A DNA stretch of 64,000 bases from a bacterium. GTDB taxonomy: Bacteria > Patescibacteriota > Minisyncoccia > Moranbacterales > GWC2-37-73. Position numbers and translations under genes: made by a program. Below are positions 2,798-6,126 of this stretch, piece by piece. The notes beneath the pieces are model-generated. The model had not been told where the DNA came from. It saw only the letters and a list, made by a program, of their open reading frames with translations, and made no database searches. The stretch spans positions 28,176-92,175 of the forward strand of contig JBAXDL010000002.1 in assembly GCA_037140955.1 (NCBI GenBank). Direction: 5' to 3'. Numbering within the stretch: the first letter of the stretch is position 1; every line of letters begins with the position of its first letter.

Positions 2798-3832
2798 ATG
2801 AAATACAAGCTATATACAACTTCCTTCAAAGCTTGGGATGCCATGATTGAGGCAATCGATGGAGCATCAAAATCAATATACCTTGAAATGTATATTTTTG
2901 AACGCGACACCACTTCAAGTCATGACTTCATTGGCAAGCTGAAACAAAAAGCCCGTGATGGTGTGCGAGTCGTGATTGTGGCTGATGCCTATGGCAGCAA
3001 GAACCTGAAAAATGAATTGGCAAAATCAATGCAAGCAGCTGGCATTGAGCTTATTTTTTTTAGTCATTGGCTGCGGCACATTCACAGAAAAATATTAATC
3101 GTCGACAAAAAAATAGCCTTTGTGGGTGGGGTCAATATTGGCAAGGAATTTGCTCACTGGGATGATTTGCAACTTCGCATGAAAGGTGGAATTGTCAAAA
3201 GAATCTTGAAATCATTTGCCTATACCTATGAAATGGCTGGCGGAAAAGATCACAAAATTTTGCACTTGAAAAATGGAAAATTCACAGCAAAATTAAAATT
3301 TTTGATCATGGAGCATTGGCCAACCAAAAACATTCATACCCTGAAAAGTCATTACATCGAAAAAATTTCTAACGCCAAAAAAAGTATTCAAATTGCAACT
3401 CCATATTTCACTCCGCCACGCTGGCTCAGCTCCCTGCTCGACAGTGCCGCCAGCAGAGGCGTCGCAATTGAAATTCTCATTCCAAGCGATGTTGATTTAA
3501 AAATAATGAACAATGTGAACCGCCACTACATGAACAAATTGAATCCCTCGGGAGTAAAGTTTTATTTGTCAAAAAAAATGAATCATGCCAAGCTTCTTAT
3601 TGTTGATCATGAAGAAGGATTGATTGGTTCGCAAAACATTGACCTTGCTTCCTTTCAATTGAACTCTGAAGTAGGGATATTTTTTAAAGAAAAAAAATTG
3701 CTAACAGAACTGGAAACAACCATCAAAAAATGGAAACAGAATTCAGAAATATTCAAACCACAAAAACACAAAATGCGATTTATTGACTATGTCATCCTGG
3801 CCCTGTCAAAAATATTATATCCAATATTATAG
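2798..3832 (+). CDS. PLD-superfamily protein with two HKD motifs (cardiolipin-synthase-like, no N-terminal TM helices)
   Basis: Two HxKxxxxD motifs: HRKILIVDKKIAFVGGVNIG and HAKLLIVDHEEGLIGSQNID. 344 aa. Confidence 0.7.
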   Translation: MKYKLYTTSFKAWDAMIEAIDGASKSIYLEMYIFERDTTSSHDFIGKLKQKARDGVRVVIVADAYGSKNLKNELAKSMQAAGIELIFFSHWLRHIHRKILIVDKKIAFVGGVNIGKEFAHWDDLQLRMKGGIVKRILKSFAYTYEMAGGKDHKILHLKNGKFTAKLKFLIMEHWPTKNIHTLKSHYIEKISNAKKSIQIATPYFTPPRWLSSLLDSAASRGVAIEILIPSDVDLKIMNNVNRHYMNKLNPSGVKFYLSKKMNHAKLLIVDHEEGLIGSQNIDLASFQLNSEVGIFFKEKKLLTELETTIKKWKQNSEIFKPQKHKMRFIDYVILALSKILYPIL

Positions 3833-4014
3833 CCACAAAAAAGAGCACCCTCCAAAGACACACAGATAATTCAGAAATACTATAGAATTTTTTTGTGAAA
3901 CCTATTTCTTATGAAGCAACAGCAAGCGAGAGCGAGCTCTTAGCGAAGCAGTTATAGTTCCCAACTGCAAGCGTGCTGAAAAAGAAATAGCGTGAACAGA
4001 AAAATATCACTACT

Positions 4015-5262
4015 ATGCCAAAAATTCAAATTACCGCCAAGGGTATCAGAGCTGCACTAAAAAAATATACACCATATCAATCACTAACAGAATACATCTG
4101 GAATGGTTTTGACGCTCAAGCATCAACCATTGAAATAAACTATATCGCCAACGAATTGGGAGGAATCGAATCAATTTCAATCAGTGATAATGGCTATGGC
4201 ATTCCACATGAAAAATTGCAAGATAAATTTGAACCAGTTTTTGAATCAAAAAAAGCCCTCGAAAACAAACTCAAAAAAAATCTCTCAGCTATTCATGGAA
4301 AAAACGGAATTGGACGATTGACCTTTTTCACTTTTGCCAGAAATTCATCATGGAAAACAACATATTCCAGCGGCCAAGAAAATTTGACCTATGAAATATA
4401 TGCCAACGCTGAAAACATCAACCTATACACCGGCATCAACGCCACACCAAAAAAGACCACCGAGCAAACCGGCACAACAACAACATTTTCTGGAATTTTT
4501 GGATTGACAGCCTCTCAACTTGAAGAAAAATTTCAAGAATATTTGCTCAAAGAATTTGCCTGGTTTTTGGCACTCAACAAAAAGCGCAATTTTTCAATTC
4601 TAATCAACGGCATTGCTATTGATTTCAAAAATATTGTTGCCGACAGTGAACAATTTGAAATATTGCATCCAGACACACAAACCTTGTTTGAAGTTTCATA
4701 CATCAGATGGGAACAAAGACTCAACAATGAACCATCACGCTATTATTACATGAACGCACAGCATCAGGAGCGCTGGAAAGAGCCAACCGCCATCAAGAAC
4801 AAGGGTGAGCAATTTTATCACAGCCTTTTTGTCGAAAGTTCATATTTTGACTCTTTTGGATTTCAAAGTTCTTCGATTCAAACTCAAGATGCTCTCATTG
4901 TTGGAACCAGGAGCGATTCGCAATTTCGATTCTTGCGAAGAAAATTGGCAAACACTTTGCGCATCAAAAGAAGACCATTTCTCAAGGGTTTTGCTGAGCA
5001 ACTCTTGCTTGAATATGAGCAAAAAAATATTCTTCCAGTTGATGCCAAAGAAAATCTAAAACAAACAATCAGGATTTTATACGAAATGCAACCAAAAATT
5101 TTCAATTCGCTGAATCTTGAACAGAAAAAAATATTAGTCGGCTTGCTTGGAGCGCTCCTTGAAAGCAACAAAAATGAAGCCATTGCAGGACTTCTTGGCG
5201 GAATCATTGAGCTTACCGCTGATGAACAAGCAGAACTTGCCCAACTATTGTTGCCGGTATAG
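4015..5262 (+). CDS. Standalone GHKL (HATPase_c-like, Bergerat fold) ATPase
   Basis: N-box-like EYIWNGFDAQAS, G1 box ISDNGYGI and G2-like HGKNGIGRLTFF near the N-terminus. No kinase dimerisation/His domain and no MutL or topoisomerase C-terminal domains recognised. Confidence 0.55.
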   Translation: MPKIQITAKGIRAALKKYTPYQSLTEYIWNGFDAQASTIEINYIANELGGIESISISDNGYGIPHEKLQDKFEPVFESKKALENKLKKNLSAIHGKNGIGRLTFFTFARNSSWKTTYSSGQENLTYEIYANAENINLYTGINATPKKTTEQTGTTTTFSGIFGLTASQLEEKFQEYLLKEFAWFLALNKKRNFSILINGIAIDFKNIVADSEQFEILHPDTQTLFEVSYIRWEQRLNNEPSRYYYMNAQHQERWKEPTAIKNKGEQFYHSLFVESSYFDSFGFQSSSIQTQDALIVGTRSDSQFRFLRRKLANTLRIKRRPFLKGFAEQLLLEYEQKNILPVDAKENLKQTIRILYEMQPKIFNSLNLEQKKILVGLLGALLESNKNEAIAGLLGGIIELTADEQAELAQLLLPV

Positions 5263-5313
5263 GAAAAATGAATAACAAAAGACCGCACAGTTTTAACTAT
5301 GCGGCCAACTTTT

Positions 5314-6126
5314 TTAAGCCACTCTTGGAGGGCGAGGTCGTATTAATTTGAAGAAATTTTCCCTTGCTTCGTTTTCAAGCAATATAATATTTGCTTTTTC
5401 AAAACCAGCTTTTTTTATTTTACTCTTAAGATTCATGCTTAATCGAAAATTAATGCGAGATTCATCGCGACCAACCCTATTAAGAATAAATTGCCCCATT
5501 TTCATAGCATCAACAATTACTATTGATTCTCCATCAATACAACAGTACTGAGATCCTTTGTCGTTGCGAATGATGCAAATAAAAATTTGCCTCCTATCCC
5601 CCCTACCAAAAATTTTCTTCTTGAAATTAAAGACTGGGTATTGATAGCATAGGATTCCAATAATCAAAAGCACGCCAAGAAGAACCATGATAATCATTTT
5701 ATTTTCCAATTTTCTCTCCTCATTTCCCTGTTTGTGTTGCAATGCATTAACAATGTCAACCTTCTCAATCTTGGTTGCCTCTGTGATTATTTTCTCCTGC
5801 TCCATGGCGGCCAAGACCTCTTCCTTTGAACTTATCCTTGCAGCAACCTTTTTTTTCTCGACAGGTTTTTCAATGACATTCTCAACAATCTTTTTGCCTG
5901 GTGGTATTTCCATTTTTTGACCAGGGAAAATAAGATTTGGATTATTCTTATCTTTCAATCTCTCTTTGTTGAGCTTAATAATAACTTCATGCGAAATGTT
6001 GTAGCGCTTTGCCAATTTCCAGAAGTTATCACCTTTTTTAACAACAATTTCAATGTTTTCAGCAAAAGACATTTCAGCAAAAGACAGACCAAGCATCATC
6101 ACGGCAAACAAGACAAAAATTCTCAT
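5314..6126 (-). CDS. LysM-domain protein with signal peptide and one internal TM helix
   Basis: N-terminal signal-like MRIFVLFAVMMLGLSFA. LysM motif VKKGDNFWKLAKRYNISHEVIIKLN...IFPGQKMEIP. Charged linker, then TM MIIMVLLGVLLIIGILCY. C-terminal about 90 aa not recognised. Confidence 0.5.
   Translation of the reverse strand: MRIFVLFAVMMLGLSFAEMSFAENIEIVVKKGDNFWKLAKRYNISHEVIIKLNKERLKDKNNPNLIFPGQKMEIPPGKKIVENVIEKPVEKKKVAARISSKEEVLAAMEQEKIITEATKIEKVDIVNALQHKQGNEERKLENKMIIMVLLGVLLIIGILCYQYPVFNFKKKIFGRGDRRQIFICIIRNDKGSQYCCIDGESIVIVDAMKMGQFILNRVGRDESRINFRLSMNLKSKIKKAGFEKANIILLENEARENFFKLIRPRPPRVA

Follow-up and report, generated by a model that had tools for sequence, protein, structure and literature searches.

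A cardiolipin-synthase-like PLD gene and a nuclease-less Shedu-type GHKL ATPase gene: probably independent neighbours in one group of Moranbacteria

Two neighbouring genes at one edge of the window, the whole 64-kb stretch of DNA that was analysed, are best explained as functionally independent. We give a probability of about 0.6 to the reading that a ClsB-like PLD gene and the gene of a nuclease-less Shedu-type ATPase stand side by side through lineage-specific synteny in one Moranbacteria group. The first gene (2798..3832, plus strand) encodes a 344-aa PLD-superfamily protein of the cardiolipin-synthase-like, ClsB type, whose single chain carries two HKD motifs. The second encodes a 415-aa GHKL ATPase (4015-5262, plus strand). 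Both open reading frames are exact at these coordinates, and a spacer of 182 bp (3833..4014, plus strand) separates them. An earlier note on this DNA had proposed that the pair forms a conflict or defence module. The link to conflict systems holds for the ATPase, which descends from the paraMORC3 / type I-D Shedu family, but the pairing with the PLD gene as a two-gene module finds little support.

The same note placed the two genes, both on the plus strand, in a minus-strand neighbourhood after an efflux pump. Strands and order are correct, but the RND efflux pump gene (48-2720) also lies on the plus strand. The plus-strand block at the window edge therefore comprises at least three genes (efflux pump, PLD and GHKL) rather than forming a two-gene insertion; in related loci, four consecutive plus-strand genes occur. 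From 5314 to 63706, all open reading frames of at least 150 aa are on the minus strand, when those nested in a longer opposite-strand frame are excluded. The first of them, a LysM gene (5314-6126, minus strand), is convergent with the GHKL gene. A G+C-rich hairpin in the interval between the two (5281..5306) was reported by the terminator scan on the minus strand and is followed by AACTTTTTT on the plus strand. The hairpin probably serves as a bidirectional terminator at the end of the plus-strand block. The same type of scan found no terminator-like site on the plus strand of the spacer between PLD and GHKL, about 75 nt of which are shared with the equivalent spacer of a single relative (L004). 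Such spacers measure between 11 and 1016 bp in relatives. Promoter and terminator scans around the pair did not rise above shuffled sequence and do not bear on co-transcription of the two genes. The neighbourhood of the pair in the window is housekeeping in character (RND pump, LysM, L7/L12, L10, S16, HU and SMC). Rfam gave no matches across the whole window, and no second PLD or GHKL copy was found in its 64 kb.

The PLD protein is matched twice by Pfam PLDc_2 (E 1.3e-41) and also by PLDc. Its two HKD motifs can be read directly from the plus strand: HRKILIVD (aa 96-103, nt 3083-3106), followed by GGVN, and HAKLLIVD (aa 263-270, nt 3584-3607), followed by GSQN. No membrane helix is predicted, as the highest 19-residue Kyte-Doolittle mean, in the C-terminal tail, is 1.42 and no segment reaches the criterion of at least 1.6. 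The tail is hydrophobic, and the protein has a pI of 9.8. The earlier description of an adjacent PLD protein with both HKD motifs and no membrane anchor was thus correct. The conclusion drawn from it, that a protein without an anchor is not a classical cardiolipin synthase, is weak. ClsB and ClsC are without N-terminal membrane helices, so such helices are not required of these types, and the window protein is collinear with E. coli ClsB in BLASTP (27% identity over 328 aa, E 1e-30). Residue 2 pairs with ClsB residue 10, and ClsB shows no N-terminal extension.

Like ClsB/YbhO and other bacterial cardiolipin synthases, the protein carries two HKD motifs in a single polypeptide, collinear with the Cls catalytic domains. 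Its top three NCBIfam matches are cardiolipin synthases, across the whole catalytic region, and its homologues carry the name cardiolipin synthase in their sources. Both genes of the pair are real, with homologues that number in the hundreds and with low dN/dS. The window protein is about 70 residues shorter than ClsB, and it does not reach the curated equivalog cut-offs of TIGR04265 (the ClsA-type cardiolipin synthase model; 175.5 bits, cut-off 290), the ClsB model NF008427 (138.9 bits, cut-off 281) or PRK12452 (129.2 bits, cut-off 787). The match to TIGR04265 covers model positions 121-483 of 483; the N-terminal part of the model is absent from the protein, as are the N-terminal transmembrane helices, which belong to the ClsA type only. 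A literature search on cardiolipin synthase in Patescibacteria/CPR gave nothing directly useful. From this homology we infer a cardiolipin-synthase-like lipid enzyme. It would act as a ClsB-like, peripheral-membrane phospholipid transphosphatidylase, that is, as a synthase or remodelling enzyme of cardiolipin or related phospholipids. Both HKD halves would feed one active site, and the hydrophobic C-terminal tail and high pI would suit membrane association. De novo lipid synthesis is generally regarded as absent from Patescibacteria; the substrate in such a host may therefore be scavenged lipid.

The PLD superfamily also includes nucleases, and the window protein shares the HKD catalytic motif with DrmC of DISARM, with NucT/Nuc and with the PLD domains of Mokosh MkoB/C. 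Each of its halves matches nuclease models (PADLOC DrmC, E 2.5e-24; NucT, E 2.7e-17). The matches are partial, however. NucT scores 63.3 bits against a cut-off of 211 and DrmC_I 54.3 bits against a cut-off of 133, each covering a single HKD domain. Single-HKD subunits are characteristic of the PLD-fold defence nucleases, whereas here two HKD domains are fused in one enzyme, which matches Cls over its full length. Among the open reading frames in the first 12 kb, none encodes a DISARM or Mokosh partner. In a comparison with PADLOC-DB v2 at the level of HMMs alone, the PLD protein matched generic DrmC/Mko PLD-domain models only and the GHKL protein matched REase_II only (E 4e-6). No named two-gene PLD and GHKL defence system was matched by both proteins, in agreement with the earlier remark that the pairing is not a named system.

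The ATPase is matched by Pfam HATPase_c_3 (E 5e-17, aa 18-136). It belongs to the GHKL (Bergerat-fold) superfamily, as motifs I-IV are all present on the plus strand: E26xxxN30 (nt 4090-4116), D58xGxG (4186-4200), G95xxGxG (4297-4314) and T152GT (4468-4476). All are invariant across 72 homologues. The ATPase domain (aa 1-160, 4015..4494) contains a lid (aa 76-96) that is of low confidence. It is followed by a middle, S5 or transducer-like, alpha-beta domain (aa 166-280, 4510..4854) and by a C-terminal helical region (aa 302-415, 4918..5259) delimited from alignment and from the secondary structure of models of short and long family members. MutL was considered as an assignment and rejected: TIGR00585 gives only 27.6 bits against a cut-off of 180 (aa 26-79), and a PDB sequence match (E 9e-4) extends over 59 residues. 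Similarity to E. coli MutL, a representative of the MutL/MORC/Hsp90 type of GHKL plus transducer protein, is limited to motifs I-II, and the window protein has neither the MutL C-terminal dimerisation domain nor a MutS/MutH context. The BbrUII/HgiDII restriction enzymes (NF050001) were likewise rejected (53.3 bits against 550), as the match covers the GHKL part only, positions 25-207 of 659; longer relatives of the window protein, of about 665 aa, show the same partial behaviour. The gene is indeed a stand-alone GHKL ATPase, and not a kinase, MutL or topoisomerase, as the note had described it.

The evidence points to the ATPase as a descendant of the GHKL-Shedu / paraMORC3 family that has lost its nuclease. 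It is 40-48% identical, across 99% of its length, to the proteins of about 665 aa, which carry an additional C-terminal PD-(D/E)xK nuclease of the pattern D...hhhExK...Q. The region aa 302-415 is, in these relatives, the linker into the nuclease domain, and the window protein stops, at aa 415, at the boundary with that domain. PHROG 6203 (644 positions) is matched by the long form at 20-634 and by the window protein at 12-397. By fold, the closest relative of the nuclease domain is SduA of Shedu; a Shedu structural match is present for the long form and absent for the model of the short form. In sequence comparisons of the long forms, PADLOC SduA gives weak matches (E 0.003-0.011), Pfam does not detect DUF4263 in the C-terminal domain (HSDR_N_2 appears below threshold in nine of ten members), and a profile of that domain searched against PDB sequences returned nothing meaningful. 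It is thus fold comparison and published architecture, rather than sequence HMMs, that carry the Shedu link. The combination of GHKL and nuclease domains was described as paraMORC3 (Iyer, Abhiman & Aravind 2008, PMC2292703). The same architecture defines type I-D Shedu in the classification of Gu et al., with VcSduA of Vibrio cholerae as a validated anti-phage member in which E27A and K557A abolish defence (PMC12137116).

With these proteins the window ATPase shares the N-terminal GHKL motifs I-IV and the catalytic Glu, a homologous Hsp90/MORC/MutL-like middle domain (S5 or "N24") and, after it, a helical linker. E26 lies one position off E27 of VcSduA and, judged by position, probably corresponds to it. 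In contrast to type I-D Shedu, the window protein lacks the DUF4263 / PD-(D/E)xK (RE-fold) nuclease, and none is encoded nearby: neither the 64-kb window nor any of 51 short-form loci gave a significant match in tblastn with 11 nuclease-domain queries. The genomic setting differs as well. The long forms are found in seven loci inside type I R-M operons of the order hsdR-X-hsdS-(SLFN/AlbA_2)-hsdM, and also on plasmids and viral contigs, whereas the window gene is vertically inherited in a core neighbourhood and not in an island, prophage or plasmid.

The short forms are under strong constraint. The missing domain is the one that gives the family its known activity, which could suggest that the 415-aa gene is a functionless, decaying remnant, a pseudogene-like truncation of a GHKL-Shedu gene. 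This explanation is extremely improbable, and purifying selection effectively rules it out: dN/dS is 0.03-0.08 across both genes and, in pairs with dS of at least 1, 0.03-0.07 for GHKL. More than 70 clusters at 90% identity keep the same length of 412-433 aa, the ATPase motifs are all invariant, and the truncation is clean at the domain boundary. Neither the window nor the flanking DNA of short-form loci retains any nuclease-domain similarity. In a tree, the short forms of Moranbacteria are monophyletic, with PLD-less members nested inside the clade, and they keep a fixed position beside the ribosomal protein genes rplL/rplJ. The fixed place, the single Moranbacteria origin and the strong purifying selection suggest that a defence module was domesticated into a stand-alone chromosomal function. 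The 415-aa gene is thus most likely a domesticated, stand-alone, ATP-driven clamp. An independent short form of about 430 aa occurs in Pedobacter, a parallel loss of the nuclease, without PLD; its flanks carry cysteine-synthase-like or antiporter genes together with 5-oxoprolinase/Nramp genes.

All residues for ATP binding and hydrolysis are kept, E26 included. By analogy with MORC, MutL and Hsp90, the protein would dimerise through its ATPase domains on ATP binding, and the middle domains would close a clamp round DNA or a partner protein; for VcSduA, an entwined clamp has been reported. Without a nuclease of its own, it would act by binding, remodelling or recruitment instead of by cutting. 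A separate possibility is that the unrelated Moranbacteria and Pedobacter lineages both co-opted this nuclease-less clamp as a MORC/MutL-like factor for handling chromosomal DNA.

A different reading, which we regard as unlikely though not far-fetched, keeps the short GHKL protein in defence and the PLD protein as an unrelated lipid enzyme. The ATPase would then have unlinked partners, for instance an R-M system or some other nuclease; alternatively it would need no nuclease and would clamp invading DNA as a sensor or blocker. The vertical, single-origin inheritance and fixed housekeeping position in Moranbacteria, and likewise in Pedobacter, argue against it, since a patchy distribution and mobility are typical of defence genes. 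No defence neighbour is conserved across loci. In favour of this reading, the short form of one locus (L109) directly follows, on its downstream side, a DpnII-type R-M system and a T5orf172 gene. The ancestry of the family in Shedu / paraMORC3 and in type I R-M operons and the full retention of catalytic ATPase residues fit such a role, and unlinked R-M partners were raised for stand-alone paraMORC3 by Iyer et al. (PMC2292703). On the other hand, the nuclease of VcSduA is essential to defence, as K557A abolishes it (PMC12137116).

Whether the two genes belong together can be judged from their linkage. PLD stands upstream of the short GHKL gene, within about 2.3 kb, in 14 of 21 Moranbacteria loci and is absent in the other seven. 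Outside Moranbacteria, it adjoins none of 64 loci with GHKL relatives. In linked loci the two genes lie between 11 bp and about 1260 bp apart, in some cases with one opposite-strand gene (L014) or two same-strand genes (L110) between them. Fourteen loci (L083-85, L087-97), of which about 11 are distinct, carry an orthologue of the PLD protein (50-68% identity) with no GHKL gene in the surrounding 5-6 kb, and these solo PLDs are mixed among the linked ones in the PLD tree. A metagenome scan with PLD gave 12 loci, of which 11 could be used, a smaller sample than was wanted for statistics. Adjacency in distant lineages and in both directions, as in a conserved operon or gene pair, was not found. 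A locus with GHKL only (L112) and three with PLD only (L083-85) have a common downstream gene block, which indicates reciprocal loss. The two-gene module is therefore mostly unsupported, as the pair is confined to one Moranbacteria clade. The earlier note had named failure to co-occur elsewhere and clustering with cardiolipin or phosphatidylserine synthases as outcomes that would speak against its own proposal, and this is largely what emerged, with PLD orthologues that occur solo and best full-length matches to cardiolipin synthases, the experimentally characterised ClsB among them.

Other features of the linkage run against functional independence. The same-strand pair is kept in two thirds of Moranbacteria loci despite variable flanks upstream of PLD, and four genomes have gaps as short as 11-22 bp, consistent with co-transcription. 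In two close genomes the flanks are 83-94% identical in amino acid sequence and GHKL 94%, yet PLD only 62%; the PLD allele was replaced and kept its place beside GHKL. The scores of PLD below the Cls cut-offs count on the same side. Moreover, a nuclease-less GHKL module would plausibly need an effector in trans.

These points are the substance of a rival in which the two genes form a split effector module: the nuclease-less GHKL clamp would be rewired to the upstream two-HKD PLD protein, an effector in trans under ATP-dependent control. We consider it rather improbable. Its effector, with equally little likelihood, would be a nuclease or a membrane-degrading phospholipase of a new two-gene, Shedu-like "GHKL-PLD" system in CPR bacteria. 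The match of both PLD halves to DrmC/NucT models is in line with it. There is also precedent, since HKD nucleases are known in MORC-associated operons, with HKD domains present in some MORC-linked R-M operons, and E. coli MutL uses MutH in trans (both discussed in PMC2292703). Against it stand the seven Moranbacteria loci that keep GHKL without PLD within 5-6 kb, nested in the linked clade, the solo PLD orthologues, the reciprocal loss, the intervening genes and the independent Pedobacter lineage without PLD. Over its full length, PLD most closely resembles cardiolipin synthases, PADLOC offers no model beyond generic domain matches, and the context is housekeeping and not a defence island.

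If the preferred reading of two independent genes is true, there is nothing unusual about the PLD gene, and the proposed module has no place in a catalogue of defence systems. The ATPase would represent a natural "nuclease deletion" within the GHKL-Shedu / paraMORC3 family, clean and strongly conserved, that arose separately in Moranbacteria and in the culturable Pedobacter. The short form would offer a route to what the GHKL and middle module of type I-D Shedu does alone, be it sensing, clamping or recruitment. It would also be an example of a defence module turned into a fixed chromosomal gene, in line with proposals on how MORC and MutL-like functions arose.

The locus is best read, with a probability of about 0.6, as two independent genes in a clade-specific synteny, one encoding a ClsB-like phospholipid enzyme and the other a domesticated, nuclease-less paraMORC3/type I-D Shedu module. 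Both open reading frames (ORFs) lie on the plus strand where the earlier note had placed them: a PLD-superfamily gene at 2798-3832 (344 aa) and a GHKL ATPase gene at 4015-5262 (415 aa). The pair does stand beside an efflux pump, but it is not isolated on its strand, since the RND efflux gene upstream of PLD (48-2720) is also on the plus strand. The pair and the pump belong to a run of three or more plus-strand genes at the edge of the window, and a hairpin (5281-5306) between the convergent GHKL and LysM genes marks the end of this run. Genes for L7/L12, L10, S16, HU, a DUF5671 protein and SMC follow downstream, and the neighborhood is housekeeping rather than a defense island. Close relatives of both proteins are named Candidatus Moranbacteria or Moraniibacteriota.

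The surrounding sequence shows an extreme strand bias. Among ORFs of at least 150 aa, excluding those nested in a longer opposite-strand ORF, all those counted from 5314 to 63706 (~58 kb) are on the minus strand, and the only three plus-strand genes are at the left edge. The cumulative GC skew falls steadily across the first 14 kb of the window, the part profiled. The LysM-domain protein of 270 aa, whose minus-strand gene (5314-6126) converges on GHKL, is fast-evolving and probably located at the surface. Between two compared loci, L005 and L006, its counterparts share only 27% identity, whereas the adjacent L7/L12 proteins are 100% identical.

PLDc_2 domains occur twice in the PLD protein, alongside a PLDc motif, and the two HKD motifs noted earlier are intact (HRKILIVD at residues 96-103 and HAKLLIVD at 263-270). 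Among curated families, its top three matches are all cardiolipin synthase models: TIGR04265 with 175.5 bits (model positions 121-483), ClsB with 138.9 and PRK12452 with 129.2. None of these scores reaches the equivalog cut-off of its family. The nuclease models NucT and DrmC each match one HKD half only, at far lower scores. No membrane-spanning segment was found in the protein, the top 19-residue hydropathy being 1.42, in the C-terminal tail. The missing anchor was therefore correctly noted, but it is no argument against a Cls-type enzyme, because the protein aligns collinearly with the experimentally characterized E. coli ClsB (27% identity over 328 aa, E 1e-30), and its residue 2 matches ClsB residue 10, leaving ClsB no N-terminal extension. 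ClsB and ClsC are not known to carry N-terminal helices. No close solved structure was found for the PLD protein.

The GHKL ORF encodes an HATPase_c_3 domain with all four motifs (E26xxxN30, D58xGxG, G95xxGxG and T152GT), in agreement with the Bergerat boxes reported earlier. A homologue search covering 5.8 billion proteins returned two groups. The first consists of ~78 Moranbacteria clusters of short forms (412-433 aa, 54-82% identity to the window protein). The second consists of ~665-aa long forms from Bacteroidota, Chloroflexota, other Patescibacteria and archaea, with 40-48% identity across 99% of the window protein and ~250 further residues beyond its end. An invariant D...hhhE-x-K...Q signature in this extension identifies it as a PD-(D/E)xK nuclease. 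PHROG family 6203 (644 positions) matches the long form over 20-634 and the window protein over 12-397 only. AlphaFold2 models were built for both forms, and that of the window protein (pLDDT 84.8) runs from the GHKL domain through an alpha-beta middle domain to a helical region. The long-form architecture is already described, both as paraMORC3 (GHKL, S5 and an RE-fold nuclease), a type widespread among Proteobacteria and Bacteroidetes that frequently stands alone (Iyer et al. 2008, PMC2292703), and as type I-D Shedu, which joins a GHKL fold to an Hsp90/MORC-like "N24" middle domain (bioRxiv 10.1101/2023.08.10.552793). One member, VcSduA of Vibrio cholerae, has been confirmed by experiment to defend against T1-like phages, and either E27A in the ATPase or K557A in the nuclease abolishes its activity (PMC12137116). 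The link to Shedu is based on fold comparison and published architecture, as sequence HMMs alone are insufficient: Pfam DUF4263 has no match in the long-form nuclease region, and PADLOC SduA models match long forms weakly. Long forms occur inside type I restriction-modification (R-M) operons at seven loci (L031-33, L036, L039, L041, L064), in all of which a ~675-aa GHKL-nuclease gene lies directly 3' of hsdR. The full gene order (L032, L041) is hsdR, GHKL-nuclease, hsdS, a Schlafen AlbA_2/HATPase_c_4 protein and hsdM. Long forms are also found in 47 plasmid records and on 10 viral contigs, and these locations are consistent with a mobile defense gene. While homology, domain loss, selection and distribution are shown by the analysis, we infer biochemical activities, and by analogy with MORC, MutL and Hsp90 the window protein may act as an ATP-driven dimeric clamp.

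The proposal that the two genes form a defense module is mostly unsupported by their distribution. In an ATPase-based survey of 80 loci, one genome per species, PLD was immediately upstream of GHKL at 12 of the 16 short-form loci from Moranbacteria and at none of the 64 others. Adding the window and four more contexts brings the Moranbacteria loci to 21; PLD lies upstream at a distance of up to ~2.3 kb in 14 of them and is missing in seven (L009, L011-13, L109, L111, L112), which are nested within the PLD-linked clade. Conversely, PLD orthologues (50-68% identity) occur with no GHKL gene within 5-6 kb (L083-85, L087-97), scattered among GHKL-linked PLDs in the PLD tree. Each gene thus persists without its partner. 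L112 (GHKL only) and L083-85 (PLD only) are followed by one and the same set of genes (small gene, MacB/FtsX, ABC ATPase, MFP, two small genes, sigma-70), which suggests that PLD and GHKL once stood together there and that either one or the other was then lost. This independent persistence makes it unlikely that the GHKL clamp has been rewired to PLD as its effector in a linked system. Some weight is kept for such a system because adjacency outlasts turnover of the upstream flank, HKD nuclease domains are present in some MORC-linked R-M operons (PMC2292703), and gaps of 11-22 bp in four loci fit co-transcription. Gaps elsewhere are 50-499 bp, apart from ~1 kb in L014, with an opposite-strand gene, and ~1.26 kb in L110, with thioredoxin and pseudouridine-synthase genes. 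Weight also comes from the closely related Moranbacteria loci L001 and L002, where the PLD allele was exchanged but kept its place beside GHKL, two divergent PLD lineages filling that slot (L001 4887-5969, L002 4829-5911). Flanks there are 83-94% and GHKL 94% identical in amino acids, PLD only 62%; in DNA, the PLD gene is 67% identical and its surroundings 81-87%. L001 carries two additional small genes upstream, one for a cupredoxin and one an ORF of 85 aa.

In the window's PLD-GHKL spacer (3905-3990), ~75 nt align with the equivalent spacer of one relative, L004 (about 5870-5960). Both contain a possible long-range stem of differing sequence (CCUAUUUCUU...AAGAAAUAGCG versus UUGUUUUCUUU...AAAGAGAACAA). 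The margin of this fold over shuffled sequence is slight (z -1.8), and the stretch has no Rfam match and is lacking in other relatives' spacers.

Two independent genes remain the preferred reading, and the window GHKL is a nuclease-less derivative of the long-form family. A fragment is ruled out by its end at the boundary with the long-form nuclease domain, by ATPase residues that are all invariant, and by a dN/dS of 0.03-0.07. No nuclease-domain similarity was found in the 64-kb window or within ~6 kb of 51 short-form loci. In a neighbor-joining tree, Moranbacteria short forms are one clade nested among long forms, including a Moranbacteria one (L017). Independent of this lineage is a second nuclease-less radiation, in Pedobacter and relatives (~420-448 aa, about 35 loci within L029-L080, for example L030 5971-7293). 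There, the gene immediately precedes those for a 5-oxoprolinase subunit and Nramp in 19 of the ~35 loci; the region upstream of it varies, cysteine-synthase-like or Na+/H+ antiporter genes being typical. The best 150 representatives at 50% identity include 90 long proteins, of which 83 have the ExK motif, and 15 proteins of 405-460 aa; several of these 15 terminate at the same domain boundary. Together, the two radiations and these shared ends show that nuclease loss is recurrent, with long-term vertical retention afterwards at least twice.

Two Moranbacteria short-form loci have other neighbors. In L109 (280-3490), the short GHKL gene closely follows a T5orf172 gene and a DpnII-type R-M system (D12 methylase, DpnII, N6_N4 methylase). 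In L111 (6274-7419), the 3' end of the short GHKL gene overlaps the start of a GT4 glycosyltransferase gene by 11 bp, and the Pfam matches listed for the latter include "GT4-conflict".

Published accounts of the family (PMC2292703; PMC12137116; bioRxiv 10.1101/2023.08.10.552793) do not mention a nuclease-less form, and "paraMORC3" literature was scarce in a full-text search. As a variant within a known family, the nuclease-less Shedu-type ATPase is modestly novel.
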